NCBI GenBank assembly: GCA_029259175.1
Contig: JAPDJH010000009.1
Location: 57,610-121,609, forward strand
DNA from: Hadesarchaea archaeon
GTDB lineage: Archaea > Hadarchaeota > Hadarchaeia > Hadarchaeales > Hadarchaeaceae
Direction: 5' to 3'
DNA: 64,000 bases
Positions within the stretch are counted from its first letter, which is position 1. Every line of letters begins with the position of its first letter. This document shows, in pieces, positions 5,098 to 63,093 of the stretch. The position numbers were made by a program, and so were the translations under genes. The notes beneath the pieces are model-generated. The model saw only the letters and a program-made list of their open reading frames with translations. It was not told where the DNA came from and made no database searches.

Positions 5098-5592
5098 ATG
5101 AACAAATCGAATGCTGACCAACGCGTGCTCCTCTACGATCCACAGCGTTGTACCGGTTGTCGTTGCTGCGAGATGGCGTGTGCCTATCAGAACTTCGGCT
5201 CGCTCACGCCAATAAAAAGCCACATCCGGATAATCGCGAGCGAGGATGGAATCCACCGCGATGCCGTGTACTGCTGGCACTGCGAGGAACCGGTGTGTGC
5301 CGCGGCATGTCCGGTGGATGCGATAGAAAAGGACGAGCGCACGGGCTGGGTGCGGGTGAATCCGCTTAAATGCATCGGCTGTCGATCGTGCACATATGCA
5401 TGTCCTGTGGCTGCCGCATGGTTCGATGAAGATCGGCGGACGGCTGCGAAGTGCACCTTCTGTGACGGGGATCCGCTCTGTGCCCGTTTCTGCTCGCCAC
5501 AAGCCATACGAGTCGCCACCCGAGCGGAGGCCTCAGCCGCGCTCAAACAAATTCTCGGAGGTGCCGCGAGTGGAGGCGGAACGAGTCCTTAA
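5098..5592 (+). CDS. Four-cluster [4Fe-4S] protein (DmsB/HydN/CooF-like)
   Basis: CTGCRCCEMAC, CWHCEEPVCAAACP, CIGCRSCTYACP, KCTFCDGDPLCARFC. Confidence 0.9.
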   Translation: MNKSNADQRVLLYDPQRCTGCRCCEMACAYQNFGSLTPIKSHIRIIASEDGIHRDAVYCWHCEEPVCAAACPVDAIEKDERTGWVRVNPLKCIGCRSCTYACPVAAAWFDEDRRTAAKCTFCDGDPLCARFCSPQAIRVATRAEASAALKQILGGAASGGGTSP

Positions 5593-6214
5593 AGCTGCTG
5601 GAGCAATCCAGGTGGTAAAAAAACGTGATCGAAAAGTGGAAGCCGCGATCAGGCCCGACCGTATACGGACGGTTGCAAGCAAGTTGTGTTCCCATGGCGC
5701 ACGTTTCATCATCATTGCCGCGGCGGATTCGGGGCTCGATATCGACTTGATCTATCACTTTGATTTGGATGGGCTAGTAGTTGCTGTAAAAACGAGAGTG
5801 CCTAAAGAGTCCCCAGAAATCGACTCAATAAAGGATATAGTGCCCGGAGCTGAATGGGCTGAGCGCGAAGCTTCAGATCTCTGCGGTGTACGCTTCCGCG
5901 GGGGCACAAACGAGCCATTGGTTCTTCCCAAAGAGGGTGCTCTGGAGACTCCTCCTCTCACGCGAGCGTTTCGGGTGCTGCCAGCCGAGGTGGCCCCCGT
6001 GGCGGAGTCCATTGCGAGCGTTGGGGCAACAGCCCCGCTGACTTCGCTTATGGAGCGCCGACGCCAAGAGGCAGGACTCGAGGCCAAAGCACCCATGGTC
6101 TACGCCACCGAAAAGGGGACTAAGGAATTGACAGAACTGATCAAGCAAGCCAGCTTCACCGAGCGCGGAGGGTTCGATCCCGAGCGTAAAAAGTTGAGAG
6201 GTGTGTACAAGTGA
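5570..6214 (+). CDS. NuoC/EchD-like hydrogenase subunit with HdrC-like C-terminal extension
   Basis: GTG at 5570 after GGAGGTG RBS; D..LIYHF, IDSI..I.PGAEWAEREASDLCGVRFRG = NuoC family; extra ~70-aa tail. Confidence 0.8.
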   Translation: MEAERVLKAAGAIQVVKKRDRKVEAAIRPDRIRTVASKLCSHGARFIIIAAADSGLDIDLIYHFDLDGLVVAVKTRVPKESPEIDSIKDIVPGAEWAEREASDLCGVRFRGGTNEPLVLPKEGALETPPLTRAFRVLPAEVAPVAESIASVGATAPLTSLMERRRQEAGLEAKAPMVYATEKGTKELTELIKQASFTERGGFDPERKKLRGVYK

Positions 6215-7080
6215 AGGAGTACGCTGTCTACTGGGGCTGCATGATTCCTCATCGTCTGCCCTCGATAGAAATCGCGGCCAGATATGTGCTCGAAAAGCTT
6301 GGTGTTCGGGTGCGCGAGGTTGAAAACTACACTTGTTGCCCGGATCCGATCATTGGGCGATTTATCGATAGAAAAACTGCCCTGACACTTTCTGCACGCA
6401 ATCTAGCACTGGCCGAAGAACTGGGTCCAGAACTTCTAGTTCTCTGTAATGGGTGCTTCGAGACACTGATCGAAGCCGTAGAGGCTCTGCACGATGAAAA
6501 CACGCGCACTGAAATTAACCAAATCCTAGAAAAAGTTGGCAGGAAATACCAAGGAGCTATACAAGTCCGCCACGTGGTAGAAGTGCTGCACGACGATGTT
6601 GGGCTAAACCGGATAAAAGAGGTCGTTCAGAAGCCATCGAGGGTCAAGCTCGCCGTCCACTACGGATGTCACCTTTTCCGCGAACCCAATGGTGGGGACA
6701 TCTGGAGGAAACCAAAACAATTCGAAGAGCTCCTGCGTGTGATCGGAGGCAATCCAGTACTGTGTGACCACAACAGGCTGTGCTGCGGTTTTCCGACGTC
6801 ACATGTGGATCCGGAGTATTCGTTGCGCATGAATCTGTTGCCTAAGATGCGGTGCTACAAACAACTAAAAATAGAAGCTGTGGTTACTGTGTGTCCAGCA
6901 TGCACCATTCAGATGGAAACTGGACAGCGCATGCTCCGCAAGTTTGGCTTGGAGACCTCCGTTCCGATAGTTCACTTGATGGAGCTCATGGCACTTGCTT
7001 TTGGAATGAGGCCCCAAGAGCTTTCGCTCAAGGTTCACCGCAGCCCCGTCGAGGATTTTGCTAGGAGGGTGTTCGGATGA
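6211..7080 (+). CDS. hdrB: Heterodisulfide reductase subunit B-like (two CCG domains)
   Basis: YWGC, TCCPDP, SARNLALAE, LCNGC, HYGCHL, LCCG, VCPAC. Confidence 0.9.
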   Translation: MKEYAVYWGCMIPHRLPSIEIAARYVLEKLGVRVREVENYTCCPDPIIGRFIDRKTALTLSARNLALAEELGPELLVLCNGCFETLIEAVEALHDENTRTEINQILEKVGRKYQGAIQVRHVVEVLHDDVGLNRIKEVVQKPSRVKLAVHYGCHLFREPNGGDIWRKPKQFEELLRVIGGNPVLCDHNRLCCGFPTSHVDPEYSLRMNLLPKMRCYKQLKIEAVVTVCPACTIQMETGQRMLRKFGLETSVPIVHLMELMALAFGMRPQELSLKVHRSPVEDFARRVFG

Positions 7081-8210
7081 GCGAAATCGCGCGCTACGGT
7101 CCATATCATCCCATCCACCTTGAGCCGGAGGTCTACGAGGTTCATGTTCGCGAAGGCAGGATTTCGGATGTACGTATCGAGCAGGGCTTCACTCACCGGG
7201 GGATTGAGCGCCTTCTAGAGCAGCAGTCAGTGAAGCACGGGGTTCTCTTGGCAGAACGGGTCTGCGGATTGTGCTCTCAGGCCCATGCGGAGGCCTACTG
7301 CACTGCGGTGGAAAACACGCTCAAAATCGAGCCGCCGGAGCGTGCGGCACATATTCGAACGCTTGCTTTCGAGCTCGATCGAATCCATAGCCACCTCATG
7401 TGGTTCGTGCTTTTGTTTCACTCCGTGCGCGACACTGAGGCATTAACCGTGGTGCTGAACCGGCGAGAACGGCTGATGGATCTAATCGAATCGCTGTTCG
7501 GGAATCGGGTTCACTTCTCCATCAACACTCCGGGTGGGGTAAAACGTGACTTGCCCGCAGATGCGGATCAGCTTGTGCGCCGAACGATGGAGCACGTGCG
7601 CAATCTCGCAGATTTCGTGAAAAACAAGGTAGAAGCGCACTCGCAACGACTGAGTGGAATCGGTGTATTGCCAAAAGAGAAAGCTAGAGCTTACGGGGTT
7701 GTAGGACCTGTGCTCCGCGGGTCGGGGATCGCCAGCGACATAAGGCGGGACGATCCGTATCTGATCTATGACGAATTGGAGTTTGACATCCCGACGGAGG
7801 ACTCCTGTGACGTACTGGGACGAACGCGTGTGCGGGTTGCCGAGCTCTACGAGTCCATCCGGATAGTTGAGCAGACCGTGAAAAGAATGCCGGTAGGCGA
7901 ACTCTCGGTGGAGTTCCCATTCCCGTTGACCAATGAGGACTGCGGGCGAGTGGAGGCTCCCCGTGGAGAGCTCATCTACTTCGCGCGGCTGAGGGGGACC
8001 AGCTTTCCGGATCGTGTGAAGCTCAGACCGCCCACCTATGTCAACGACCCAGCCGTCGCCGAGATGCTCAAAGGAGAACCACTTGAAAATCTGCCGCTAG
8101 TCCTCGAGAGCATCGACCGCTGCATTTCATGCACTAATCGCGTGACAGTAATTGATGAACAAAACGGGCATGTCAAAAAAATCTCGCTGGAGGATCTGGT
8201 GCGATGGTAG
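7077..8210 (+). CDS. Group 4 [NiFe]-hydrogenase large subunit
   Basis: GPYHP, GFTHRGIE, L1 RVCGLCSQAH, EAPRGE, L2 DRCISCTNR followed by a cleavable-type C-terminal extension. Confidence 0.9.
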   Translation: MSEIARYGPYHPIHLEPEVYEVHVREGRISDVRIEQGFTHRGIERLLEQQSVKHGVLLAERVCGLCSQAHAEAYCTAVENTLKIEPPERAAHIRTLAFELDRIHSHLMWFVLLFHSVRDTEALTVVLNRRERLMDLIESLFGNRVHFSINTPGGVKRDLPADADQLVRRTMEHVRNLADFVKNKVEAHSQRLSGIGVLPKEKARAYGVVGPVLRGSGIASDIRRDDPYLIYDELEFDIPTEDSCDVLGRTRVRVAELYESIRIVEQTVKRMPVGELSVEFPFPLTNEDCGRVEAPRGELIYFARLRGTSFPDRVKLRPPTYVNDPAVAEMLKGEPLENLPLVLESIDRCISCTNRVTVIDEQNGHVKKISLEDLVRW

Positions 8211-9061
8211 ATGAGCTCCGAGTATATCGGTTCAACGCGGGGTCGTGCAACGGTTGTGATATTGAGGTCGTCAGTGCTCTAGCGGAGCACTACGGTCTTC
8301 AAAACGTCCGGGTGGTAGAAGAGGTGGAAGAGGCAAACACCATGGTAGTTGTGGGTGTCGTAACGACGAAGACCGAGTCCCATCTGAGAGCAGCTTATGA
8401 AAAACTCCAAGATCCCAAGCTCGTTATTGCCGTGGGGACGTGTGCCGTTTCGAGTGGAGTGTTCGATGGCTCCTACAGTGTCCGGAATCCGCCTGAGACA
8501 TACATCCCAGTGAGAGCATATCTAAACGGGTGCCCCCCTAGCCCTCACTCGATCGTCTCAGCTCTCCGCGCCCTTATGGCCCGCCAAGACTCCGAGTGGA
8601 CAGCGCCCAAGGGCTACAGGGGATTGCCGGTGGTCGATGCCGAGAAATGCACCGCGTGCGGAGCTTGCGCTATCGCCTGTCCCGCTAGCGCTATCGAAAT
8701 CGAAGAAGCCGACGAAGGCAAAATCGTGCGCTACTTGCACGATCGCTGCATCAGTTGTGCCACCTGCGAGCTCGTGTGTCCGGAGGACGCGGTGAGGCTG
8801 AAGGAAGAGCGTCATCCGCTGGTGGCGGAACGAGAAAAAGCTAGGGTGGAAACGAAGTTCACAACGGTGCAGTGCCCGGTGTGTGGTAGTGGGCACATAA
8901 CGGAACGGCATCTGGACGTGATTGTTGAACGGCTGAAAGAAAAAGAGGCGCTGAAAGCCGCTGCTCAGGAACTGCGCGAGCGATCGAAGCTCGAGAGGAC
9001 TTGCAAGATAAGGCAGTTGGCTGTGGGCAAGCAATTGCTTTTTAAGCTCGGCTATGGATAA
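8204..9061 (+). CDS. Group 4 hydrogenase small subunit (NuoB-like) fused to 2x[4Fe-4S] NuoI-like domain
   Basis: GSCNGCDIE, GTCAVSSG, GCPP, then YRGLP..CTACGACAIACP, CISCATCELVCP. Confidence 0.9.
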   Translation: MVDELRVYRFNAGSCNGCDIEVVSALAEHYGLQNVRVVEEVEEANTMVVVGVVTTKTESHLRAAYEKLQDPKLVIAVGTCAVSSGVFDGSYSVRNPPETYIPVRAYLNGCPPSPHSIVSALRALMARQDSEWTAPKGYRGLPVVDAEKCTACGACAIACPASAIEIEEADEGKIVRYLHDRCISCATCELVCPEDAVRLKEERHPLVAEREKARVETKFTTVQCPVCGSGHITERHLDVIVERLKEKEALKAAAQELRERSKLERTCKIRQLAVGKQLLFKLGYG

Positions 9062-41082: not shown

Positions 41083-41865
41083 CTACTCCTCAATCCTCCG
41101 CTTGAGGAAGTAGCCTTCCGGGTCAATCTCGCGAAGAAGCTTAAGATCCTCAGCGCTCGGCTCCTGCATTGTTTTGACCTCTTTAGGAATAATCAGCTCA
41201 AAACCCACTTTGTCCTGGATATCCTCCGGAGTGAGCCCTGGAGCAACTTCCAGTAGCATCATCCTCCGAGTTCGCTTATCGTAACCGAAGAGTGCTTGGT
41301 GAGTTATCACACGGTATGGTCCGGCACCCATCACGCCCGCGCGTTCACGGTAATCGGGAGAACCATCACCAAAACCTATTGAAGTAATGAAGTCCACGCG
41401 CTCCACGAATCGGCGTTTTTCCAACGGCATGATGACTATGGTGCGCTCGCAGCTGGCCGCCATCGCCCCGGCCCCCCCGCTGCCCGGAAATCTCACCTTG
41501 GGCCGGGTGTAGTCATCACCTATTATGGTAGAATTCACGTTTCCGTACATGTCGATCTGTGCGCCGCCGATAAACGCATAGTCCGCGATTCCCCGCTGGG
41601 TGAGCTCAAACGCCTGGCACATTCCCTTCAGAAAGCAGGCCCGATTAGCTGCCCGGGTGTCGCCGACTGAAAGAGGCAGGCCGAGTTCCAAAATGGGGGC
41701 CAGCGACCCTGCCTCGAAGATCATCAACAAATTGGGCGCGTGAGTCATCTGAGCGTGCAGTGCGGAGATGATGGGAAGACCTGTCCCTACGAAAACGATT
41801 GTGTTGTCCTCGAGGACCTGGGAGCCCGTGAAGGCAATCATCTCATAGGGGTTGTAGTCCGCCAT
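41083..41865 (-). CDS. Family I CoA-transferase beta subunit (GctB-like)
   Basis: FVGTGLP, IFEAG (catalytic Glu position), GGAQIDMYGNVN, GSGGA, VDFITS.G. Confidence 0.9.
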   Translation of the reverse strand: MADYNPYEMIAFTGSQVLEDNTIVFVGTGLPIISALHAQMTHAPNLLMIFEAGSLAPILELGLPLSVGDTRAANRACFLKGMCQAFELTQRGIADYAFIGGAQIDMYGNVNSTIIGDDYTRPKVRFPGSGGAGAMAASCERTIVIMPLEKRRFVERVDFITSIGFGDGSPDYRERAGVMGAGPYRVITHQALFGYDKRTRRMMLLEVAPGLTPEDIQDKVGFELIIPKEVKTMQEPSAEDLKLLREIDPEGYFLKRRIEE

Positions 41866-41875
41866 CGGGCTCACC

Positions 41876-42925
41876 TCACACCAGCAAGGGTTGTCCGCCG
41901 TCCAACATGCGGGCCCGCTTCAGATCCTCGGGCGGGATCTTCCGTATGAAGTCGTCGTGATCCTCACATTCGAAGATGTACTTGTTGTAGTACTCCTCGA
42001 GCTTGTCTTTTTTTCCAGTCTTTCTGAACTCCTCGCAGGCGCTTCTGAACAGTCTTATGTGGGCCATGTCGAACCAGTAGAATCCATACACGGCACCCGG
42101 ATAGGCTCCGTAGGGCTGGTGCACGATTGCATCAACCACTGGAAAGGGGATCTCCGTGAGATTGGGGAACTGGCGGATCGCTTTACCTGCAATCATCTTC
42201 TCGGTTGTCACGATAGTGTAAGTGGAGGCCATGGCGATTTCTGGGCAAGTGCAGTAAGGACCAAAAATCCGACAATTTCCGTACTTGTCGGCCCCTTGGA
42301 CATGAATGATGCCCACATCGGGATGGCAGGCGGGAACCACGTAGACGTTTTTTCCCGTGAAAGGACACTCAATCATTTTGCCGCGATTGGTCAGCTCCAT
42401 ATCGGTGCCTCCCATATCGCGCACGGGAAGAAACGGCACTCCCATCGCCCCGGCTTTGAACCTAGCAGCCATTCCGTAATTCGAATAATCGTCTATCTCG
42501 ATCATTCCATTCTGGGCAAGATAGCGGAAGAGAGGGGCAAGTCCGATGACCTCGTAGGCCCACCACGCCATCTCGGCACGGCGGATAGACAGGTGATTCT
42601 CATCCAAAATCATAGCGCCCGCTAGGTACTCTGCCGTCAAGGACTGTGACTGGAAGGAAAGAGTGAGATTCTTGGCCCCCTGCCGGATGATTTCGTGAAC
42701 GATCGCTATGGGCACACGAGTATTTACGAATCCGCCAATCCCGAGATTTATCCCGTCCTTAACAAATTTTTTCACAGCGTCTTTGAGCGTCATGCGCTTA
42801 TCTCTGATCCCCTTCGGCTTGGATGCTAGGATTTTTCGAGCCTCTTCCGGCGATGGGCCCCACCACTCGAACTTGCGCTCATACGGCTTCAGCTGTGAGA
42901 TGTCTCGGATTCTGGACTCCGCCAT
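41876..42925 (-). CDS. Family I CoA-transferase alpha subunit (GctA-like)
   Basis: VKDG..LGIGGF, AGAMGVPFLP, GTD, CPFTG, HVQ.AD.YGN. Confidence 0.9.
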   Translation of the reverse strand: MAESRIRDISQLKPYERKFEWWGPSPEEARKILASKPKGIRDKRMTLKDAVKKFVKDGINLGIGGFVNTRVPIAIVHEIIRQGAKNLTLSFQSQSLTAEYLAGAMILDENHLSIRRAEMAWWAYEVIGLAPLFRYLAQNGMIEIDDYSNYGMAARFKAGAMGVPFLPVRDMGGTDMELTNRGKMIECPFTGKNVYVVPACHPDVGIIHVQGADKYGNCRIFGPYCTCPEIAMASTYTIVTTEKMIAGKAIRQFPNLTEIPFPVVDAIVHQPYGAYPGAVYGFYWFDMAHIRLFRSACEEFRKTGKKDKLEEYYNKYIFECEDHDDFIRKIPPEDLKRARMLDGGQPLLV

Positions 42926-42926
42926 C

Positions 42927-44318
42927 TCACCACCCATATCTCTCAACAAAGGATTTGAGCGCTTTGGTGAAGCACAGCATGGGGGCCCTCAGCACTCCGA
43001 AGCCGACAGTCCCATAGCCCGGTTTCTTGTGGGCCACCCCCGTGTTGATGAACGGCAGAATTCCCGTGTCCACCACTTTCCGCAGGTCGATGCACCGCGG
43101 TGTTCCCTCGAAGTTCAGGAACGGAATCGAGAAGCTCTTGTCCTTCACCAAGCATATTTCGGCCATTTCCTTCGTATATTCCGCTGCAGCCGTTGCGGTT
43201 CCTCCAACCACCTGAACCACCGCTGGGGCGGTAGCGGAGGCAAAACCGCCGAACCCTGCCGTTTCCATGATTGCACTGTCCCCGATATCCGGATTTGCAT
43301 CTTCCTCTTTGAACCCGGGAAAGAAGAGGGTCTTCGGAACCTCGGCTGGGGCAGTGAACCACTCGTCATCCAGCCCACTTACCTTGATTCCAAAATCGGT
43401 CCCGTTTCTCGCCAGCACCGTGACCACCGTGCTGTGCTTTATCCGATGACCAGCGTCCATCATCGCTTTTGCAGCTGCCATGGCCGGATTGAGAAAGAAG
43501 AGAAAGTTCTCTCCCATGAAGCGCATCACCTCAGCCTTTTCTTTCTCGCTGAAGCCAGTCTGGGCAATGAAGGGGGCAAGCTGTTTCAGAAAGAGCAAGC
43601 TGGATGCCACGTTTCTGCAGTGGAGCTCGTCTCCCATGTGAAGCGCCTGGGCCATGATCGCTTTCAGGTCAATAGGGCCGGAAAGCTTCAAGGCCTCTTT
43701 CAGTACTGGACCGAGGGTTTGCTCCATCCACTTCAATCTTTTAATGGTCTCGTCGCCGTAGGCCCCGTAACGCAACACTTTTCCAAGCCCCTCGTTGAGG
43801 TTGGAGTAGTAGCGCTTTCCATTGTTCTCCACGATAAAGACGGGCATGGAGGGAGAGATCACCCCCGCCATCGGTCCGACGCTGTCGTGGTCGTGGCACG
43901 GGGCGAATTTGATTTCTCCGCTCTTGGCAATACGTTCGGCTTCTTCAACATTTTTTGCGCGTCCCTCATAGATTAGAGCCCCCATGATCGCGCCCTTGGT
44001 CGGTCCCGACATCCGCTCCCATTCGATTGGCGGGCCGGAGTGCAGGTACGTGTCCTCATCCATTTTCGGGATGACTTCCTTCGCGGTGCCGATTCCGATC
44101 AGTTTCGGGCTGGCGGCAAGGATTCGCTCAACGGCTTTTTGGTTCGCCTCGTCCACCTCTGGGCGCTCCAGTTTCTCAAGCAGTTTTGCGAGTTCGGGAT
44201 CCCCTCCAGCCGGTGGCCTCCATTCAACGTGAACGGCTTCCGCGCGCTGGAGTTTCAGGTCCTCATAGAAGGAGCGCAACCCCACGTTGATTATCTTGAG
44301 ACGTTCCGGCAGCCTCAT
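42927..44318 (-). CDS. YlbE/DUF1116 (AllG-like) protein with N-terminal FdrA-tail domain
   Basis: LHSGPP, PCH.H..VGPMAG, NEG.GK.LR.GA, MGDELH.RN, ARNG..FGI, D.GDSAI.E, INTGVAH. Confidence 0.9.
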   Translation of the reverse strand: MRLPERLKIINVGLRSFYEDLKLQRAEAVHVEWRPPAGGDPELAKLLEKLERPEVDEANQKAVERILAASPKLIGIGTAKEVIPKMDEDTYLHSGPPIEWERMSGPTKGAIMGALIYEGRAKNVEEAERIAKSGEIKFAPCHDHDSVGPMAGVISPSMPVFIVENNGKRYYSNLNEGLGKVLRYGAYGDETIKRLKWMEQTLGPVLKEALKLSGPIDLKAIMAQALHMGDELHCRNVASSLLFLKQLAPFIAQTGFSEKEKAEVMRFMGENFLFFLNPAMAAAKAMMDAGHRIKHSTVVTVLARNGTDFGIKVSGLDDEWFTAPAEVPKTLFFPGFKEEDANPDIGDSAIMETAGFGGFASATAPAVVQVVGGTATAAAEYTKEMAEICLVKDKSFSIPFLNFEGTPRCIDLRKVVDTGILPFINTGVAHKKPGYGTVGFGVLRAPMLCFTKALKSFVERYGW

Positions 44319-45877
44319 AGCTTATCCCACACTCCTCCTCTGGTTGCTATCAAGGCCGCCATCCGAACGGCCTGTGCGTTGGACGGCATAACCACCACCC
44401 CTGCCTCCTCCAGTTTTTCCCGTTGCCTGCTCAGCCGTTGCGGATCTCCCTCGGTTCCACATACAGAAGCCACTACTGAAAGATATCTTCCCTCTTTTTC
44501 CGCGATTTGCTTAGCTTCCTTGATGGCCCCAACCAACTCTCCCGCCGGATCTAGGTTGGCACCGATCCCGAGAACCACATCTAGCAGGATGACCGCGACT
44601 TCCGGATCTCTGGCCTCTTTCAGAATTCGCTCGCGCCTGAACCTGAAGTCGATCATCGGATGGGGAACGCCGCGGACGAACTCCTCAGTCCCCATGTCCA
44701 CACAAGTGTGAGCCCGGCTTTCCCGCCCGCTTTTCAGTTTCAGTCGCGGTTCGAGCGCGACGTTCGAGTACACGTCTCCAATCAGGTCACGCAAAAGCAG
44801 GAGTGCTTCGGCACAAAGCGTCCCCCCCGAGAACAGTCCTCGGATGTATTTCTGCTCCGGTTTCAATCGCCTGCTCTCAGTTTCAACGAGCTCACGGACC
44901 TTCTCCTCCGGCAGGGTGAACTTGGTCTCGCTGGGTTTCTCGTTTCTCAGGATAGCCATCGCTTTCCGAGCCGCGTCCTCTAGGGTGATGGCCGGAACCA
45001 ACCCTGCCTGCTCGACCAGCTTAGGATCTCCTCCAATGAAATTAACGACCACCGGTTTGCCACACTCTTTTGCAACCTGCAACACTTTTTCGGCGACTTT
45101 GGGCGAGGGCGGTTTGGAAATGAGCACGATGACTTTCGTGTTTGGATCCTCCTGCAGGGCGCGGAGACCCGTCAGCATGGTGATCCCTCCAACCTCGTCG
45201 GAAAGGTCGTGGCTTCCGGTTCCAATCGCGTGCGTGATACCCACCTCGTCAAGAATGGAAGAAACTTCTTGAATGCCGGTTCCTGCAGCCCCCACAATCC
45301 CTACCGGCCCCTGTCGCACGACGTTGGAAAAACCCAACCCGATTCCTCCGATGATCGCGGTTCCGCAGTCGGGACCCATCACGAGCAATCCTCGTTCCTG
45401 CGCATACTTCTTCAGTCGGACCTCTTCCTCGATCGGGACGTCGCTGCTGAACACCATCACGTGCTTTCCGGCTCTCAGCGCACGCATGGCCTCTCGCGCA
45501 GCGAACTCCCCGGGTGTAGAAATGAGCACGAGGTTGGCATCCGGTATGTTCTCAATCGCGGCCTTTAGCGTTTTGTAGGTGACTTCTTTCACCTCGGCCT
45601 CCGCCTCAGCTTCTAGAATTTGCTCGGCTTCTGATATCGCCTTCTGAGCGGCATCCTCACTCTCGGCATCGACCACTATTATGAGATCGTTTGGTCCAGC
45701 TTTCTCCATTTCTTCCATGTAAAGTCCGGCATCCTTTAACAGTTCCTTGTTGTTGTCGGTTCCCATCATAACCGAGGCTTTGCGAACTCCTGCCTTGCTC
45801 TCGAGTTCTGTAGAAACTCTCATCAGAACGACAGAGTCTCGATAGTCCCCTTTTCTAATGTTACACTTGAGTACCAT
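44315..45877 (-). CDS. fdrA: FdrA (AllF-like) acyl-CoA synthetase-like protein
   Basis: Y.DSV.LM, MMGT..N, MGPDCGTA, GTG.QE, ISKPP, GLFSGGTL, PHPMID, GTE.DPQ. Confidence 0.92.
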   Translation of the reverse strand: MVLKCNIRKGDYRDSVVLMRVSTELESKAGVRKASVMMGTDNNKELLKDAGLYMEEMEKAGPNDLIIVVDAESEDAAQKAISEAEQILEAEAEAEVKEVTYKTLKAAIENIPDANLVLISTPGEFAAREAMRALRAGKHVMVFSSDVPIEEEVRLKKYAQERGLLVMGPDCGTAIIGGIGLGFSNVVRQGPVGIVGAAGTGIQEVSSILDEVGITHAIGTGSHDLSDEVGGITMLTGLRALQEDPNTKVIVLISKPPSPKVAEKVLQVAKECGKPVVVNFIGGDPKLVEQAGLVPAITLEDAARKAMAILRNEKPSETKFTLPEEKVRELVETESRRLKPEQKYIRGLFSGGTLCAEALLLLRDLIGDVYSNVALEPRLKLKSGRESRAHTCVDMGTEEFVRGVPHPMIDFRFRRERILKEARDPEVAVILLDVVLGIGANLDPAGELVGAIKEAKQIAEKEGRYLSVVASVCGTEGDPQRLSRQREKLEEAGVVVMPSNAQAVRMAALIATRGGVWDKL

Positions 45878-46189
45878 CCGGGCCAGCCTCCACTTTTTAT
45901 CGTTTTAGTATTTTAAAAAACTGGCTGAGGTTCCGTGGTACTTCGAAAAATCGAATTGGAGTTGATGGTACGAGTCCGGTTCGTCGCGGCATCGATTTGA
46001 AGGAAACAGAATACTGTAGGGAAGAAGAGTAAACGATGTGCTGACTAGAAATACTGCCTGTGTCTTGTGTCCGTTGGTTATATTCGCGTGAACGGCTTTC
46101 TAGCTGACTAAATAAATAAACAACAGAAAGCACTGGACTCTTCGAGCAATCGTGGAATTTTTTAACCACGACGCACACAAGAGTTTGGT

Positions 46190-48526
46190 TTGATGCCTGA
46201 ATACTCCTATGTCGGGAAGGAAGTCCCGCGCCTCGATGCGGTTGAAAAAGTCACTGGGGCGGCGTTGTACACCGCAGATTTGAAGTTTCAAGGCCTTCTC
46301 TACGCCCGGTTGCTCAAGAGCCCGTATGCTCACGCCAAGATAGTTCGGATCGACACGTCGAAGGCCGAGCGCCTACCAGGAGTTCACGCGGTTTTGACTG
46401 GTGAGGAGATTCCCTATCGCTTTGGCATTTACATGTCCGACAAATACATGCTGGCGTACAAGAAGACTCGATACGTGGGGGAGCCGGTGGTCGCGGTTGC
46501 AGCCGAGAGCGAGGAGCTCGCGGAAGAGGCTGCTGAGCTCATAGAAGTGGAGTACGAAGAACTCCCTGCCGTTTTTGATCCCCGCGAGGCCCTCAAAGAG
46601 GGAGCTCCGCTGGTGCACGAAGGTTTGGATGAGTACCTCCACGCGCCGTTCATTTTCCCCAAAGCCGGCACCAACATAGCCAATCATTTCAAGCTTCGGA
46701 AAGGCGATGTTGAGAAGGGGTTCAAAGAGGCGGATGTGATCGTTGAGAACGAATTCACGCAGCCGATGGTTCAGAACGTCCAAATGGAACCGCACGTGAG
46801 CATAGGGCAGTGGCATCCAAACGGCCGCATCGATGTGTGGACCAGCGCTCAATCCCCGTTTGCGGTCCGTTACCTCTTAAGTGTGGGTCTGGGCGTTCCT
46901 TTGCATCGGATAACGGTGCGGGTTCCGTTTCTGGGTGGCGGATTTGGCGGAAAGGCCGGTCTCCATTGGGAGCCGCTGGTAGTACTCCTATCGCGCAAGG
47001 CTGGGGGAAGGCCGGTCAAGCTGCTGATGACCCGCGAGGAGGAATTCAACACAGCTGCGGTTCGGCAGGGCATGTACGCGCGCATAAAAACGGGAGTGAA
47101 GCGCGATGGCAGGATTACCGCTGAGGAAATCTTGTACATTTGGGATTCCGGCGCGTATGCGGACTACGCGGTCAACATCGCGCGAGCGGCCGGTTATTCC
47201 TGCACCGGACCGTACGACGTCCCCAACGTCAAGTGCGACAGTTTGACGGTTTACACAAACCACCCCTACGGAACCGCCTACCGGGGTTTCGGCCACGTGG
47301 AGTTCCACTGGGCGACCGAGCGTCAGATGGATCTGGTGGCGAGGGAGATCGGAATGGATCCGCTCGAATTCAGACTTAAGAACGCCGCTTTGCCTGGAAA
47401 AGTTACACCGACAGGCGAGGTGTTGGCCGACGACTGTGGCCGCGTCGATCAGTGTTTGAAAGCGGTGGCGGAGGAGTTGGGGTGGGGCAAGCCGAGAGAA
47501 AAAAGAACCGAGAACGGCAAGCTGCAGGGGATCGGGATTGCTGCTCTCTGGAAAGCTCCGGCCATGCCCTCATATACGTCCTCGTCGGCAATCGTGAAGC
47601 TCAACGAAGACGGCACGGTTCTTCTCTCGCTGGGTCTCACCGAGATGGGCCAAGGAACCGAGACGGCGTTTGCCCAAATGGTCGCTCAGGAGCTCAAAAT
47701 CCCGCTGGAAAAAGTGAACGTTGTGCGTGAGCGGAACACCGACACTGCTCCGTACTCCTGGCAAACCGTAGCCAGCCGTGGCACGTTCATGGACGGAAAC
47801 GCTGTCCTCAGGGCGGTGGACGATTTGAAGCGGAAAATCAAGGAAACCGCGTCGGATCTCTTGGGCTATCCGCCGGAGTCCATAGCGATAGCAGACGGTT
47901 ATGCGTTCGTTGCACGCGAGCCGGACAAACGGGTTTCGCTTGCGCAAATCGCAACGTGCGGGGTGCTGCCGGATGGGCGCGGGGTTCGGGGTCCCCTGCT
48001 GGGCTATGGCTATTACACCGCGGAGGGCCTAACGTTCCTGGATCCGGAAACGGGTCAGGGGCGGCCCGCTCTGATGTGGACTTTCGGAGCGCAGGGGGCT
48101 GAAGTGGAGGTCGACCCCGAAACGGGCGATCTCCGGATTCTCAAGGTTGCCACCGCGTTGGACTTGGGGAAGGCTCTGAACCCGCTGCTCGTGAAGGGGC
48201 AAATCTATGGCGGGGTGGTTCAGGGGCTAGGGACGACAGTTATGGAAGAGTTCATCTTCGACGAGAAGGGGCGGCTGCTAAACAACAATCTGACCGATTA
48301 CAAAATATTTAGGACTCAGGATATTCCAGACAAGTTCGTTCCTATTCTGATTGAGAACCCGCAGCGCAACGCTCCTTACGGAGCGAGAGGAATCGGGGAG
48401 CACCCGACGATTGGAATTGCAGCCGCGGTCGCCAATGCCATTTACGACGCGACGGGAGTGGATTTCTTCGATCTTCCGATCACGCGCGAGCGTTTGTGGA
48501 AAGGTTTGAAGGGGGTGAAAAAGTGA
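46190..48526 (+). CDS. Xanthine dehydrogenase/CoxL-family molybdopterin-binding subunit
   Basis: R.DA.EKVTG, GGGFGGK, AYRGFG loop (not form-I CODH AYRCSFR), EMGQG, GIGE. Confidence 0.92.
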   Translation: MMPEYSYVGKEVPRLDAVEKVTGAALYTADLKFQGLLYARLLKSPYAHAKIVRIDTSKAERLPGVHAVLTGEEIPYRFGIYMSDKYMLAYKKTRYVGEPVVAVAAESEELAEEAAELIEVEYEELPAVFDPREALKEGAPLVHEGLDEYLHAPFIFPKAGTNIANHFKLRKGDVEKGFKEADVIVENEFTQPMVQNVQMEPHVSIGQWHPNGRIDVWTSAQSPFAVRYLLSVGLGVPLHRITVRVPFLGGGFGGKAGLHWEPLVVLLSRKAGGRPVKLLMTREEEFNTAAVRQGMYARIKTGVKRDGRITAEEILYIWDSGAYADYAVNIARAAGYSCTGPYDVPNVKCDSLTVYTNHPYGTAYRGFGHVEFHWATERQMDLVAREIGMDPLEFRLKNAALPGKVTPTGEVLADDCGRVDQCLKAVAEELGWGKPREKRTENGKLQGIGIAALWKAPAMPSYTSSSAIVKLNEDGTVLLSLGLTEMGQGTETAFAQMVAQELKIPLEKVNVVRERNTDTAPYSWQTVASRGTFMDGNAVLRAVDDLKRKIKETASDLLGYPPESIAIADGYAFVAREPDKRVSLAQIATCGVLPDGRGVRGPLLGYGYYTAEGLTFLDPETGQGRPALMWTFGAQGAEVEVDPETGDLRILKVATALDLGKALNPLLVKGQIYGGVVQGLGTTVMEEFIFDEKGRLLNNNLTDYKIFRTQDIPDKFVPILIENPQRNAPYGARGIGEHPTIGIAAAVANAIYDATGVDFFDLPITRERLWKGLKGVKK

Positions 48527-49368
48527 TTCCGAAATTCGACTACCACGCGCCGACCACGATCGACGAAGCCGTTGAACTTCTAAACACGCTGGAAGACGCG
48601 CGCGTTTTCGCGGGAGGAACGGATCTCTTCGTCCTCATGCGCGACCGACTGGTCAGGCCGAAAAACCTGATCGATTTGAAGCAGATAAGCGAACTCCAGC
48701 AGATCTCCTTTGATGAACGAAACGGCCTGAGAATCGGGGCAGCCGTCACTTTTGCGGAAATTCTGCGGTCAGAGGTGGTGAAAGACAGGTTCAGAGTTTT
48801 GTGGGATGCTGCCAGCGTTCTCGCAGATCCGGTTCTCAGAAATCGAGCGACGATCGGGGGAAACATCTGCAACGCCTCGCCCGCGGCCGATAGTGCTCCC
48901 GCTCTGCTGGTCTTGGATGCGGTTGTGGAGGTTGCAGGGGAAAGGCCGCGGGAAATCCCGATTGGAGAGTTCTTCACGGGTGTGAAACGAACAGCGCTCA
49001 AGCCAGGGGAATTCGTGCGAGCCGTGAGAATTCCCACACCGCCTCCGGGATCCAAAGGTCGTTACTACAAATGGGGTCGGACGCGGGGAGAAGACTTGGC
49101 GATCGTAGGGGTGGCCATCCAAGTGAACGGTGAAAAGGATGTGAGAGTTGCGCTGTCCTCGGTCTACAAAACGCCGATCAGGATTGGCGCGGTTGAAAAG
49201 ATTTTCAAAGAAGGAGGCCCCGTCGAGGAAAAGATAAAAAGAGCCGTCGAAGCCGTGAGATCCAACATTTCGCCCATCACTGATGTGCGGGGGAGCAAGG
49301 AGTACCGGGTTCACATGGCGGGGGTGCTCACGGAGCGCGGGTTGCGAGAGTTATTGGAGGTGAAGTGA
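48523..49368 (+). CDS. XDH/CoxM-family FAD-binding subunit
   Basis: F.YHAP.T..EA, AGGTDL, RNRATIGGNI.NASPAAD, PI.DVR.S.EYR. Confidence 0.92.
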   Translation: MIPKFDYHAPTTIDEAVELLNTLEDARVFAGGTDLFVLMRDRLVRPKNLIDLKQISELQQISFDERNGLRIGAAVTFAEILRSEVVKDRFRVLWDAASVLADPVLRNRATIGGNICNASPAADSAPALLVLDAVVEVAGERPREIPIGEFFTGVKRTALKPGEFVRAVRIPTPPPGSKGRYYKWGRTRGEDLAIVGVAIQVNGEKDVRVALSSVYKTPIRIGAVEKIFKEGGPVEEKIKRAVEAVRSNISPITDVRGSKEYRVHMAGVLTERGLRELLEVK

Positions 49369-49851
49369 GTGTCGAAACACAGAATTTCGCTGAAGGTGAA
49401 CGGGCGGCTCCACGAACTCGAGGTGGAGGCAAACAAGACCCTGCTGAGATTGTTGCGGGAGGACCTCGGACTCACGGGGACGAAGTGCGCGTGCGAGCGG
49501 GGCGATTGCGGGTTGTGCACGGTTTGGCTCGATGGGAAGCCCGTGAAATCGTGTTTGGTGCTGGCGGTGGAAGCCGATGGGCACGAGATCACGACCATTG
49601 AAGGGCTGGCGCGCGACGGAAAGCTCACACCGGTGCAGCAGAAGTTCGTGGAGCACGGAGCTGTTCAGTGCGGGTTCTGCACGCCGGGAATGATCATGGT
49701 CGCCGAAGCGTTTCTGCGCGAGAATCCCAATCCAACGGAGGAGGAAGTGAAAGAGGCTTTGGGTGGCGTGCTGTGCCGGTGCACGGGCTATCGGCAGATC
49801 ATAGACGCTGTTCTGGACGCCGCGAAGGAGATGAGAAAAGCTAGCACCTGA
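49369..49851 (+). CDS. XDH/CoxS-family [2Fe-2S] subunit
   Basis: GTK..CERGDCGLCTV, SCL, QCGFCTPG, LCRCTGY. Confidence 0.95.
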   Translation: MSKHRISLKVNGRLHELEVEANKTLLRLLREDLGLTGTKCACERGDCGLCTVWLDGKPVKSCLVLAVEADGHEITTIEGLARDGKLTPVQQKFVEHGAVQCGFCTPGMIMVAEAFLRENPNPTEEEVKEALGGVLCRCTGYRQIIDAVLDAAKEMRKAST

Positions 49852-52174: not shown

Positions 52175-52507
52175 CTATCCACCAAGCATCTTAGATATTT
52201 TCTCCTTCAGCTTAGGGACATCTTCTTTCACGATCTTCCAGACGTTTGCGTAGTCGACTCCGAAATACTTATGCACGAGTACGTTTCTAAGCCCAGCAAT
52301 GTGCTTCCATGGAACTTCACTGTGTCTGTCTTTTACGTGCTCCGGCACATTCTTTGCGGCCTCTCCGATGATTTCGAGGCTTCTCACAATTGCCCTTTTC
52401 AGCGTTTCGTCCTTCACGAAATCTTCGAAACTTTTTGCCTTCAATGCGTTTTCGATATATTCACATTCATCCAGCATGTGCTTCAAGAAGGGCTTGTAAT
52501 CCTTCAC
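52175..52507 (-). CDS. HEPN/DUF86 toxin (HepT-like)
   Basis: AIVRSLEIIGEAAK, PW..IAGLRNVLVH.YFGVD. Confidence 0.93.
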   Translation of the reverse strand: MKDYKPFLKHMLDECEYIENALKAKSFEDFVKDETLKRAIVRSLEIIGEAAKNVPEHVKDRHSEVPWKHIAGLRNVLVHKYFGVDYANVWKIVKEDVPKLKEKISKMLGG

Positions 52508-52821
52508 GCGAACACCACTTCCCGCTCCACGTAAGGCTTTATGTAAGGGCTTATCGCGCCGACCGAGACCAAGTCGACTTTTCTCCCCAGCTTCCGCTCG
52601 AGAAATTCCATCAAGTCGAAAAACTTGAGCCCTATGGGTTCGGAAAATTCGACGAGGATGTCCACATCGCTCTTTCCCGTCTGCTTCCCCCTGACGATCG
52701 ATCCGAAAACCCCTATCCTCGCGACCTTGTACTCCCGCGCCAAGATTGGCTCCAGTTCTTTCAAAGTTTTAATCACCGCCTCGAGCTCGGGATTTCGTTC
52801 CACCATTTCAAACACCCACAT
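52504..52821 (-). CDS. Minimal nucleotidyltransferase antitoxin (MntA-like)
   Basis: IGVFGSIVRG.Q...SDVDILVEF, LGRKVDLV; start may be ATG 52806. Confidence 0.93.
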   Translation of the reverse strand: MWVFEMVERNPELEAVIKTLKELEPILAREYKVARIGVFGSIVRGKQTGKSDVDILVEFSEPIGLKFFDLMEFLERKLGRKVDLVSVGAISPYIKPYVEREVVFA

Positions 52822-52899
52822 TCAGTTGGAGCCGCCCGTTATTAATTGTTCAAGATTGGGATTTCTCGTTGGTTCGCTCTGCGATTCTGCTTTTCCCCG

Positions 52900-52917
52900 A
52901 ATCCGGCCCCGGCTCCA
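52900..52917 (+). repeat. Direct repeat of tRNA-Cys 3' end (attR-like)
   Basis: AATCCGGCCCCGGCTCCA vs tRNA AATCCGGCCCCCGGCTCCA (1-nt deletion). Confidence 0.9.
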
Positions 52918-53031
52918 AACACGCTGGTTTCATTTTCCTTTCTTGAAGCCACAATGTTCCGATTTAACAAATTCAGCTTAAAATGGTCTCAGAACAAAAG
53001 TTTCACGTATGGGGTGAGAAATGGGAGAGAA

Positions 53032-53706
53032 TTGGAACTAATTCTCTGGACAATTTTCATAGCAGGAGTGTTGAAAGCCTACCTGCTACCAGCGATAGCG
53101 TTGGTAACAGGAATAGGGTTCATTCACATTCCCGACTGGATAAGCACGCCGGGGATAGGACACGCGATGACCGTCTGTATGGGCATCCTTCCGCTGGTTG
53201 GGATCATAGATTTCTATTCTCGCGGCGGGCGGCTGGAGAGAAGAAAACCGAAGAAGATCCACCTGCTCTTCTTGGTTCTGATGTTTCTTGGAGCCTTGCT
53301 TGCCCCTCTAGAAAGGATTCTGGTAAGGGGCGATGAAGTTTCCCAAGTGCTTTGGACTCTTTCAGACACGCTGCCTTCCGGAATCGCTTTCGGATTGCTC
53401 GTCCCCTTTTATAAACTCGAGAAGGAGAAAAGGCTATTATCCTTTCTGTTCTTCTTTGCGCTCACCTACATTACTGTCCCCGCAGCAGCAACAGTTAAAA
53501 TCTTGAATCCTTCACTCTCCGGTTTTCCAACGTACGAAACGCCCTTTTATCTGGACGCTTGGTTCTGGAGTGACATGATCGTCAACATAGGGGTGGGCGT
53601 CTTCTTGATTTGGAGTATTTTAAATGAGCATCTCCTTAGGAAGAGGACAACCACAAGGGTTCGCCGAGCGGGTGTTGCAGGGTTCGGTAAAGGGCGGAGA
53701 ACTTAG
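53032..53706 (+). CDS. Multi-TM hypothetical membrane protein
   Basis: About 6 hydrophobic segments; C-terminal WFWSD motif shared with 55417-56079; start uncertain (TTG 53032). Confidence 0.65.
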   Translation: MELILWTIFIAGVLKAYLLPAIALVTGIGFIHIPDWISTPGIGHAMTVCMGILPLVGIIDFYSRGGRLERRKPKKIHLLFLVLMFLGALLAPLERILVRGDEVSQVLWTLSDTLPSGIAFGLLVPFYKLEKEKRLLSFLFFFALTYITVPAAATVKILNPSLSGFPTYETPFYLDAWFWSDMIVNIGVGVFLIWSILNEHLLRKRTTTRVRRAGVAGFGKGRRT

Positions 53707-53719
53707 GAGAGGTGCAGAA

Positions 53720-55387: not shown

Positions 55388-55416
55388 GACGGTTGGATTT
55401 TAAAGTCGGGACAGGG

Positions 55417-56079: not shown

Positions 56080-56118
56080 CCCCCGATGGATTAACCGCCT
56101 TGTCAGCGAGAGGTGTTC

Positions 56119-57152: not shown

Positions 57153-57153
57153 G

Positions 57154-63092: not shown

Positions 63093-63093
63093 G

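Follow-up and report, generated by a model that had tools for sequence, protein, structure and literature searches.

A NuoC-type hydrogenase subunit encoded in the archaeal DNA analyzed here, a stretch of 64 kb that we call the window, ends in about 75 residues that profile comparisons identify as homologous to the HdrC C-terminal segment. The gene belongs to a five-gene cassette, arranged in the order four-cluster ferredoxin, NuoC-arm protein, HdrB, [NiFe] large subunit and NuoB–NuoI fusion. In our estimation, the cassette probably encodes a soluble, non-bifurcating H2:disulfide oxidoreductase, built from the NuoC-arm scaffold, HdrB and parts resembling those of formate hydrogenlyase, and this suggests that these non-methanogenic archaea couple H2 oxidation directly to the reduction of a disulfide. 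Gene clusters combining group 4 [NiFe]-hydrogenases with HdrB are already known, having been proposed from metagenomes; we know of no earlier work showing how the two hold together. Since a scaffold subunit is fused to the HdrC segment, the protein provides Rosetta-stone evidence for a physical hydrogenase–HdrB complex.

Architecture of the NuoC-arm protein

The fusion protein is encoded on the forward strand, with the NuoC (30-kDa, HycE-N-like) domain at positions 5561–5977, assigned by PF00329, AF2 and Foldseek, and the HdrC-type C-terminal arm, 78 residues plus the stop, at 5978–6214, assigned by profile searches and hhalign. The 60-residue peptide quoted in the preliminary description matches this frame letter for letter from 5978, and is followed by 18 further residues and a stop codon at 6212–6214. 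The ATG at 5396, where the program-made open reading frame starts, lies within the upstream ferredoxin gene. We place the start at the GTG at 5561 because an identical public protein (P0001) has 217 residues; the GTG at 5570 is a possible alternative.

The Pfam model Complex1_30kDa (NuoC, PF00329) matches residues 27–135 of the 214-residue form with 63.6 bits (cut-off, 22.5), and, as the match stops at residue 135 of 214, the tail is located C-terminal to the NuoC domain, where it had been placed. NuoC/FpoC models match all 17 family members. In the AF2 monomer model, pLDDT values of 80–93 are found across residues 11–110 of the NuoC domain, and the top Foldseek matches are HycE (7z0s_E), MBS (6u8y_K) and Mbh (6cfw_K). 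Only NuoC-type chains were retrieved in this way; the arm was modelled at low confidence, and the Foldseek result is therefore silent on any likeness to HdrC. The NuoC domain is cofactor-less and is presumed to serve as the anchor on the [NiFe] large subunit. To our knowledge, the NuoC domain packs on the NuoD-type large subunit in every complex-I-type module. According to the abstract of PMC7050243, complex assembly has key determinants in the NuoC-like domains of HycE and NuoCD. In public records, the NuoC-arm proteins are named ‘NADH-quinone oxidoreductase subunit C’, ‘Ni,Fe-hydrogenase III component G’ or hypothetical.

Homology of the arm to the HdrC C-terminal segment

The tail had been described by eye as following the HdrC C-terminal pattern, and the tail profile, the HdrC model and hhalign bear this out as homology over about 75 residues. 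Taken singly, the sequence scores are weak: the tail alone retrieves HdrC 5odc_C from the PDB sequences (residues 123–182 of 184) at E = 3.5e-4, the NCBIfam HdrC model TIGR03290 matches the window protein at E = 0.0037 (profile positions 84–142 of 144), and the best single-sequence PDB match of the tail is a designed ankyrin repeat protein. These scores would leave room for a chance or compositional similarity, with the tail being an unrelated linker. However, in the matches to designed ankyrin repeats (4hb5_A and similar, with the tail as the query) no stretch passes alone, and they are repeat-driven; the same holds for the TAL-effector repeats matched by the whole protein. A profile built from the 17 tails matches the PDB chains 5odc_C (7.1e-11), 8rvu_c (1.8e-9), 8rvv_C (2.1e-9) and 9sfi_E (1.8e-8), followed by the HdrC chain 7bkb_C at 0.08 and the first match outside HdrC at 0.21, and the HdrC region matched by the tails is always the last ~65 residues. 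In the opposite direction, TIGR03290 matches 16 of the 17 family members at E ≤ 0.1, the best at 1.3e-7. The profile–profile check that had been suggested, performed as hhalign of the full-length family against HdrC, gave 98.5% probability and E = 1.8e-15, pairing family columns 143–214 with columns 102–173 of the 178 of the HdrC alignment. The searches are thus concordant both ways, from the tails to HdrC, from the HdrC model to the family and by hhalign, and a chance origin, to which we assign a practically negligible probability, is refuted. The arm shares with bona fide HdrC arms the residues G, P, R, GL, PP, E, F and G-F/Y-D.

The NuoC-arm protein is nevertheless not an HdrC. While the last ~65–70 residues of HdrC (5odc_C, 8rvu_c, 9sfi_E; TIGR03290) are homologous to the arm, HdrC begins with a 2×[4Fe-4S] ferredoxin domain, and the window protein has the NuoC domain in that place. 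The absence of the HdrC Fe-S domain, also pointed out in the preliminary description, is clear: Pfam detects no Fer4-type domain (Fer4_8/Fer4_17, with two [4Fe-4S] Cys motifs) in the NuoC-arm protein, which has two Cys in total, neither invariant across the family. Bona fide HdrC-type matches, by comparison, have eight invariant Cys (C39, C42, C45, C49, C83, C86, C89 and C93). The whole protein scores 17.3 bits on TIGR03290, far under the curated cut-off of 160, which is passed by 6 of the 10 HdrC-type matches of canonical length. Pfam, the tail profile and hhalign show the protein to be a domain fusion of NuoC with the HdrC C-terminal segment, as had been proposed.

Subunits and conservation of the cassette

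The hdrB gene (6211–7080, forward strand) is adjacent to the arm gene, as had been noted, and its GTG start overlaps the arm-gene stop by 4 bases. In hdrCB operons, hdrC stands immediately before hdrB, and the arm gene takes the same position immediately 5′ of hdrB. The 289-residue HdrB has two CCG domains (Pfam CCG twice, TIGR03288, AF2). Its score on TIGR03288 (E = 6.7e-75, 252 bits) is under the 345-bit equivalog cut-off, which stands for the CoM-S-S-CoB specific enzyme, and the substrate therefore need not be CoM-S-S-CoB. All 17 sequences compared share ten invariant Cys (C10, C42, C43, C79 and C82; C153, C191, C192, C228 and C231), which form two C..CC..CxxC motifs, five Cys per CCG domain, for non-cubane [4Fe-4S] clusters. 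The AF2 model (pLDDT 90.2) superposes on 5odc_B with a TM score of 0.92 and an rmsd of 2.1 Å. HdrB is predicted to be the catalytic disulfide reductase subunit.

The [NiFe] large subunit (7077–8210, forward strand; Pfam Complex1_49kDa and NiFeSe_Hases) has the Ni-Fe motifs RVCGLCSQAH and DRCISCTNR, with equivalents in all 14 complete large subunits examined. With these two CxxC motifs and closest PDB matches to HycE (7z0s_E, 8.1e-63) and MbhL (6cfw_L, 6.6e-59), it is the large subunit of a group 4 [NiFe]-hydrogenase. The 285-residue fusion of a NuoB-like small subunit and a NuoI/HycF-like 2×[4Fe-4S] domain (8204–9061, forward strand; Pfam and PDB matches) comprises Oxidored_q6 at residues 15–124 and Fer4 at 142–198. 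Its N-terminal part matches MbhJ (7.8e-23) and HycG (4.5e-18), and residues 134–268 match HycF (1e-14). A NuoB-like part with one proximal cluster joined to a NuoI/HycF-like two-cluster part, the Cys being read from the translation, likewise marks the enzyme as a group 4 [NiFe]-hydrogenase. The catalytic motifs of HdrB and the large subunit are intact in sequence, and the partners look functional.

The ferredoxin at the 5′ end of the cassette (5098–5592, forward strand; 164 residues) is of the four-cluster HycB/DmsB type, with Pfam Fer4_7 and Fer4_11 and four Cys motifs read from the translation. Its NCBIfam matches to HybA, DmsB and HydN are all under cut-off, and in the PDB it matches the AOR Fe-S subunit (8c0z_C, 1.2e-28), HycB3 (7qv7_A, 3.7e-16) and HycB (7z0s_B, 1.2e-12). 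We considered and rejected the idea that it is the Fe-S domain of an HdrC split off by insertion of NuoC: its type is different, it is closest to the AOR Fe-S subunit and HycB, and its Fer4_8 score is only 18.2 bits against a cut-off of 27, whereas HdrC-type proteins have Fer4_8/Fer4_17.

Among the 18 related loci, which come from Hadarchaeota, Bathyarchaeia and others, 17 keep the cassette arrangement, its host lineages being Hadarchaeota, Bathyarchaeia and Asgard-labelled MAGs. Each locus has a single arm, and at 16 of 17 loci the four-cluster ferredoxin is encoded 5′ of the NuoC-arm gene; at the remaining locus (L016), no ferredoxin was found in the 453 bases ahead of that gene. A canonical HdrC was found neither in the locus flanks nor in the window. 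No hydrophobic stretch is present in the five cassette proteins (maximum 19-residue Kyte–Doolittle mean, 1.48), and no NuoH-type or antiporter-type membrane genes conserved beside the cassette were found in the gene cluster. The neighbours of the cassette, in the window and at other loci, appear housekeeping-like when judged by eye from sequence, without a family scan, and no methanogenesis genes were found among the 37 further window proteins scanned.

Constraint on the arm and predicted docking of HdrB

Conservation within the protein is highest in the tail, whose 78 of the 217 residues contain 25 of the 46 invariant columns. In the AF2 monomer model, pLDDT is below 50 at residues 125–158, and the arm shows only two short helices (162–170 and 184–203), with block mean pLDDT values of 58–70. 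Such poor order in the monomer is to be expected if the segment adopts its fold on a partner. In the solved HdrABC structures, HdrB is reportedly wrapped by the HdrC C-terminal segment, and by analogy we regard the arm as a predicted HdrB-docking segment. Because the linker between the arm and the NuoC domain is short, the NuoC domain might occupy the position of the HdrC ferredoxin domain.

An objection is that in HdrC the clusters feed electrons to HdrB, and these are absent here; HycB-like or NuoI-like clusters at electron-transfer distance would have to substitute for them. The tail could also descend from HdrC and have lost HdrB binding, now acting within the hydrogenase module as a strap that crosses the large subunit or else the NuoI-like domain, in the manner of the C-terminal extensions of some complex I NuoC subunits, with HdrB held through other contacts or unattached. 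NuoC subunits with C-terminal extensions are indeed known, the first arm residues run straight on from the NuoC PL[RGT]K segment, and the arm–HdrB interface is a prediction only. However, the arm retains the residues common to bona fide HdrC arms and is under the strongest constraint in the protein, and it occurs with hdrB directly 3′ in all 17 loci with an arm-bearing NuoC, while both arm and hdrB are missing at L018, the only locus with a plain NuoC. We therefore judge loss of HdrB binding to be distinctly unlikely.

The proposed complex

In the docking arrangement that we favor, the NuoC domain (the first ~135 residues) would pack on the large subunit, and the HdrC-type arm (the last ~75 residues) would hold HdrB, the product of the next gene. 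Electrons would pass along the hydrogenase Fe-S chain to the HycB-like four-cluster ferredoxin, which would act as a wire to HdrB, although the order of the Fe-S chain and the direction of the reaction are inferred. Electron supply through NuoI-like or DmsB-like clusters, as proposed in the preliminary description, would fit the relatives of these subunits in formate hydrogenlyase. As the cassette encodes neither membrane subunits nor HdrA, ion pumping and bifurcation would both be beyond the complex on its own.

A soluble H2:disulfide reaction without energy conservation would be physiologically odd, and the arm may dock HdrB in a complex other than a simple H2:disulfide reductase. The HycB-like subunit could exchange electrons with a ferredoxin or another partner, a thiol or sulfur donor could serve for H2 production, or the complex could unite with HdrA-type or membrane modules encoded elsewhere. 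Such functions are compatible with the HdrB score, as the substrate is not fixed by sequence, with the second NuoB/NuoD or NuoB/NuoC set close to the cassette at two loci (L002 and L012), and with related published clusters, which include antiporters, CdhA, SdhA or GcvH (PMC9723716). On the other hand, translational coupling links the five genes, which form a self-contained set, the conserved neighbours at other loci have the housekeeping-like appearance described above, and neither HdrA nor HdrC nor a membrane subunit was found in the window. These alternatives are, in our view, rather unlikely.

Comparison with known systems

Among the closest known systems are the HdrB-interacting [NiFe]-hydrogenases of group 4, namely Ehd (Methanomethylicia), Ehe (Culexarchaeia), Drh (Methanocellales) and Ehg (Nezhaarchaeia) (Kohtz et al. 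2022, PMC9723716), of which Drh is the ‘disulfide-reducing hydrogenase’ (PMC6046458). As far as the cited accounts extend, these systems and the cassette alike have a group 4 large-subunit gene co-located with hdrB and a proposed function in H2 oxidation coupled to disulfide reduction, and Drh, like the cassette, is without an antiporter subunit. They differ in that the cassette is devoid of membrane subunits, in that its ‘HdrC’ part is only the NuoC-fused arm, and in the lineages, the cassette being found in Hadarchaeota, Bathyarchaeia and Asgard-labelled MAGs. In Bathyarchaeia Family-4.3, hdrB2 is described within an ‘fpo operon’ (Qi et al. 2021, PMC8407382). The genes described there probably belong to the same cassette, which was interpreted in that work as a set of fpo genes into which hdrB had been inserted. 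The cited portion of that account is silent on the NuoC/FpoC tail and the Ni-Fe site.

In E. coli, the soluble formate hydrogenlyase arm (HycB, HycE, HycF, HycG and FdhF; 7z0s) has four Hyc subunits with relatives in the cassette, where HycE-N and HycE-C are two genes, HycG and HycF are fused, and the ferredoxin is HycB-like. HdrB stands in the position of the formate dehydrogenase, held, as predicted, by the NuoC-fused arm, and HycC and HycD are without counterpart. MvhAGD–HdrABC of hydrogenotrophic methanogens likewise couples H2 to disulfide reduction at HdrB, but its group 3c hydrogenase, HdrA flavin, HdrC clusters and bifurcation to ferredoxin are all absent from the cassette.

Distribution and significance of the arm

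A search with the arm profile among 1.84 billion representatives matched 68, of which, according to Pfam, 16 are NuoC+arm and 16 HdrC-type Fer4+arm proteins, while 28 are, by length, small proteins of 34–100 residues without a Pfam match. Four of the 68 matches (P0020, P0043, P0056 and P0071) were discarded as repeat proteins unrelated to the arm, and P0034, a 142-residue open reading frame with arm and CCG, was rejected as a true fusion, since it looks like an L010-like locus that has been copied with a frameshift. Of the small proteins, 25 were examined, and 15 of these have the NuoC C-terminal motif [YFH]P[LW][RKE][KR] at their start. A FastTree phylogeny of 75 arm segments resolved three groups, NuoC-fused, PLRK-type stand-alone and HdrC; given ~75 columns and a midpoint root, the tree was used for the groups only, and no order of events was drawn from it. 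One cluster of small arm proteins with the NuoC motif comes from Methanomethylicota and Culexarchaeia, and hydrogenases with ‘HdrBC’ have been proposed for lineages of these two groups in the cited part of PMC9723716. Our literature searches retrieved no description of the NuoC-arm fusion or of arm-only ‘HdrC’ proteins bearing the last motif of NuoC.

These observations lead us to the tentative view, held with somewhat less than even confidence, that HdrB docking resides in a portable module, the HdrC C-terminal segment, which was moved to NuoC, yielding in non-methanogenic archaea a soluble, non-bifurcating H2:disulfide oxidoreductase free of HdrA and HdrC, and that the ~92-residue ‘HdrC’ of Methanomethylicia and Culexarchaeia, in which the terminal NuoC motif persists, is the same module. 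If so, a single NuoC-anchored docking mode would be common to every HdrB-linked group 4 hydrogenase, and a concrete structural model would be at hand for Hdr-type enzymes plugging into complex-I-like modules. The fusion predicts that HdrB is positioned at the C-terminus of NuoC. One would then expect HdrB to be released on loss of residues 140–217, the HycB-like subunit to feed electrons in place of the HdrC clusters, and H2-driven disulfide reduction to proceed without flavin and without a membrane. The arm-only proteins are labelled ‘heterodisulfide reductase subunit C’ in public records, although they lack the Fe-S domain, and the present analysis corrects the annotation of these as well as of the NuoC-arm proteins.

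Five overlapping genes encode a soluble hydrogenase-like cassette

Five overlapping genes on the plus strand span positions 5098–9061 of the window, with successive overlaps of 32 (or 23), 4, 4 and 7 bases. The first (5098–5592, +) encodes a HycB/DmsB-type ferredoxin with four Cys motifs (Pfam Fer4_7 and Fer4_11), whose best PDB sequence matches are the AOR Fe–S subunit (8c0z_C, E 1.2e-28), HycB3 (7qv7_A, 3.7e-16) and HycB (7z0s_B, 1.2e-12). The second (5561 or 5570 to 6214, +) encodes a NuoC/30-kDa domain followed by a C-terminal tail, and the third (6211–7080, +) encodes HdrB, with two Pfam CCG domains. The fourth (7077–8210, +) encodes a [NiFe] large subunit of group 4 that has both Ni–Fe motifs, and its closest solved relatives are HycE (8.1e-63) and MbhL (6.6e-59). 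The fifth (8204–9061, +), by Pfam and PDB matches, fuses a NuoB-like small subunit (MbhJ, 7.8e-23; HycG, 4.5e-18) to a HycF/NuoI-like two-cluster domain (residues 134–268; HycF, 1e-14). None of the five proteins contains a hydrophobic stretch, the maximum 19-residue Kyte–Doolittle mean being 1.48. Elsewhere the window encodes archaeal housekeeping functions, among them PCNA, primase, aIF2-alpha, exosome Csl4 and Dph2.

For the NuoC fusion, we place the start at GTG 5561 because an identical public protein, P0001, has 217 residues. The ATG at 5396, chosen by the ORF lister, was rejected, as it falls within the ferredoxin gene. The NuoC domain occupies residues 27–135 of the 214-residue form (Pfam, 63.6 bits).

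Two extensions were observed at the hydrogenase end of the cassette. The large subunit carries 22 residues beyond its DRCISCTNR motif (8142–8207; 14–26 in relatives), resembling the part cleaved off HycE in maturation, as described in passages of PMC7050243; no maturation protease or hyp gene was detected among the window proteins scanned. The last ~80 residues of the NuoB–NuoI fusion (8816–9061) bear a CPVC motif beyond the two-cluster domain, with a weak match to a Zn-ribbon (PaaD; E 0.066).

The tail of the NuoC fusion is related to HdrC

On sequence grounds, the 78-residue tail (5978–6214, +) is related to the C-terminal segment of HdrC, and all the tests run agree. The preliminary description had recognized an HdrC-like pattern by eye, and the consensus lines indeed share the G, P, R, GL, PP, E, F and G-F/Y-D positions; the peptide that it quoted matches the translation exactly from 5978, and a further 18 residues lead to a stop at 6212–6214. 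As a single sequence, residues 140–198 align with positions 84–142 of the 144 in the NCBIfam HdrC model TIGR03290 (E 0.0037), and the same model matches 16 of the 17 family members at E ≤ 0.1 (best 1.3e-7). A phmmer search of the PDB sequences with the tail retrieved residues 123–182 of the 184 in HdrC 5odc_C (E 3.5e-4). A profile of the tail alone, made from the window together with 16 related loci, matched four distinct solved HdrC sequences (7.1e-11, 1.8e-9, 2.1e-9 and 1.8e-8) and a fifth (0.08), each time within the last ~65 residues of HdrC, and the first match to another protein came at 0.21. The PDB and NCBIfam tests are independent. Profile–profile comparison of the full-length family with HdrC (hhalign) gave 98.5% probability and E 1.8e-15, pairing family columns 143–214 with HdrC columns 102–173 of 178. 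The HdrC side consisted of ten HdrC-type proteins of canonical length, all matching TIGR03290 and six of them above its cut-off; since these came from the tail-profile protein search, the comparison is not independent of that search.

As also proposed beforehand, the Fe–S domain of HdrC is missing: the fusion protein has two Cys residues, neither invariant, and no Fer4 match. All 17 homologues (215–223 residues) retain the tail, and the last 78 of the 217 residues hold 25 of the family's 46 invariant columns. In the monomer model, the NuoC domain is predicted with confidence (pLDDT 80–93), residues 125–158 fall below 50, and the arm forms only two short helices, in blocks of mean pLDDT 58–70. 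Such a model is what a partner-dependent arm would be expected to look like, and by itself it proves nothing.

The adjacent HdrB matches the NCBIfam model TIGR03288 at E 6.7e-75, its 252 bits lying under the 345-bit cut-off. All ten cluster-binding Cys residues are kept in 17 of 17 sequences, and the predicted structure (pLDDT 90.2) superposes on 5ODC HdrB with a TM-score of 0.92 and an rmsd of 2.1 Å. The C-terminal segment of HdrC is said, from the work of Wagner and colleagues in 2017, to wrap HdrB.

The arm and hdrB occur together across related loci

A single scan of species-representative genomes yielded 18 loci, whose contents were established by tblastn with the proteins of the window. 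Seventeen of these (L001–L017) encode NuoC with the arm and hdrB immediately downstream, while the eighteenth, from Chloroflexota, has a plain NuoC beside NuoD, with neither arm nor hdrB. Among the 17 arm loci, the upstream ferredoxin is present in 16 (the 453 bases that L016 offers before the NuoC gene gave no match), the large subunit in 16 (L006 stops within hdrB), and the NuoB and NuoI parts in 13 (contig ends truncate L006, L010, L011 and L015); these parts are separate genes in L016 and L017. The Ni–Fe motifs occur in all 14 complete large subunits examined, a count covering the loci other than L006, L010 and L015, which are cut, and L017. Most record titles name Hadarchaeota; five name Bathyarchaeia or Bathyarchaeota, and Nitrososphaerota, 'uncultured archaeon' and 'Hodarchaeaceae' appear once each. 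The window's own upstream genes are syntenic with those of L001, a Hadarchaeum MAG. Conserved neighbours elsewhere resemble, by eye, an eIF-2B-like protein, an Lrp-type regulator, a tRNA-guanine transglycosylase and a SAM synthetase, and to judge from these likenesses look unrelated to the cassette.

Several loci show individual features. L004 (JASEJC010000001.1) bears the title Candidatus Hodarchaeaceae, an Asgard group in the NCBI taxonomy. At least seven gene families of its flanks recur in matching order in loci titled Hadarchaeota, the proteins of L004 are 56–64% identical to those of the window, and its label or binning may be wrong. In L004 (10582–12116) and L016 (3186–4217), the gene for the large subunit and those for NuoB/NuoI, which abut elsewhere, are ~1–1.5 kb apart. 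A gene of ~89 residues (DPETG..VVDMGMI..PGCPL), resembling by eye a DUF59/MIP18-type Fe–S assembly domain, lies directly 5' of the ferredoxin gene in four loci (L005:7159–7428, L006:933–1166, L009:5088–5357 and L013:7032–7298); the window has no copy. A second NuoB/NuoD/NuoI-like set (L002:2135–5349) and a NuoB plus plain NuoC (L012:12149–12929) lie a few kb from the cassette, so these two genomes also have a further module of complex-I type close by. In L017 a frame change breaks the arm (8001–8511; tblastn segments 8001–8393 and 8434–8511), and the public protein P0034 is a 142-residue ORF that starts in mid-arm, crosses a shifted stretch and enters the beginning of HdrB. Each case looks like a frameshift where the arm meets hdrB, whether from sequencing error or real.

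The arm as a module in other proteins

No second arm was found elsewhere in the 64-kb window. The tail profile retrieved 68 matches from 1.84 billion representative proteins (E ≤ 1e-3; domains by Pfam). Sixteen are NuoC plus arm, and 16 are Fer4_8/Fer4_17 plus arm, of the HdrC type, some with N-terminal extensions of up to 338 residues. One is P0034, an arm fragment running into a CCG domain, and four, unrelated repeat proteins, were discarded. The other 31 have no Pfam domain; three are HdrC-like by eye (P0054, P0065 and P0078) and 28 are small (34–100 residues). MAGs labelled Odinarchaeota, Asgardarchaeia and Bathyarchaeota contain NuoC–arm fusions as well, under the annotations NuoC, 'Ni,Fe-hydrogenase III component G' or hypothetical.

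We examined 25 of the 28 small proteins, omitting the three shortest (P0044, P0052 and P0085). The motif [YFH]P[LW][RKE][KR] starts 15 of them, including P0081 (YPLMK), and aligns with the PL[RGT]K segment closing the NuoC domain of the fusion, which in turn aligns with 'PLRKDF' of solved NuoCD. All 12 small proteins tested matched the HdrC model at positions 78–144 only. One cluster comes from Methanomethylicota and 'Candidatus Culexmicrobium thermophilum'; others bear the source name 'heterodisulfide reductase subunit C'. Judging by these alignments, we read the small proteins with the start motif as the end of NuoC plus the arm, that is, as probably the same NuoC-anchored arm on a separate polypeptide.

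Proposed function and relation to known hydrogenases

The fusion and the homology put forward in the preliminary description hold, while the tethering of HdrB and the electron path belong to a mechanism that we infer. HdrC usually supplies the arm and the feeding clusters together. Unlike there, the N-terminus of the arm in the fusion joins a cofactor-less domain, and the geometry of electron entry is a real difficulty for the mechanism. In the proposed scheme, H2 would be oxidised at the Ni–Fe site, and electrons would pass through one, two and then four cubane clusters to the pair of non-cubane clusters in HdrB, if the Fe–S chain has this order and reach. HdrB would be kept in position by contact with the NuoC arm. 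As a soluble H2:disulfide oxidoreductase, the complex would neither bifurcate nor pump ions. The substrate of its HdrB would be a putative disulfide, which, given the sub-threshold HdrB score and the non-methanogenic setting, need not be CoM-S-S-CoB. The H2 potential is about −414 mV. That of the heterodisulfide is given in excerpts of PMC12054007 as −138 mV, newly revised to −281 mV. Judged by these potentials, the reaction would be downhill.

In its parts list the cassette equals the soluble arm of formate hydrogenlyase: counterparts of HycB, of HycE (split in two) and of HycG and HycF (fused) are all present, and HdrB takes the position of formate dehydrogenase. Passages of PMC7050243 list FdhH, HycE, HycG, HycF and HycB as the soluble part of that enzyme and describe the NuoC-like domains of HycE and NuoCD as key determinants of complex assembly, in keeping with a role in docking.

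The notion of a group 4 hydrogenase that works together with HdrB is already known. In the portions available, Kohtz et al. 2022 (PMC9723716) describe as 'HdrB-interacting' Ehd and Ehe (with 'HdrBC' and an antiporter), Drh of Methanocellales (without antiporter) and Ehg, with an 'Ehd-like' clade that takes in Bathyarchaeia; Drh appears in excerpts of PMC6046458 as a putative disulfide-reducing hydrogenase, and Qi et al. 2021 (PMC8407382, in part) place hdrB2 within the 'fpo operon' of one Bathyarchaeia family. The main text of Kohtz et al. contains none of the words HdrC, NuoC, Hadarchaeota, Hadesarchaea and truncated. Literature searches, including full text, with the best matches judged by title and abstract, returned no published account of the NuoC–HdrC-arm fusion. 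Likewise not found in print were the absence of any HdrC Fe–S domain, the wholly soluble five-gene form, and the NuoC motif starting arm-only 'HdrC' proteins.

Other features of the window

For nine consecutive ORFs at 52390–63669 (151–717 residues, the last on the minus strand), NCBIfam gave no match at E ≤ 1e-5. The stretch at 41083–49851, with no relation to the NuoC–arm finding, holds a CoA-transferase-like gene cluster with an FdrA-like acyl-CoA synthetase, and a three-subunit molybdoenzyme of the xanthine dehydrogenase family (XdhA/B/C-like), whose subunits all score under the equivalog cut-offs.
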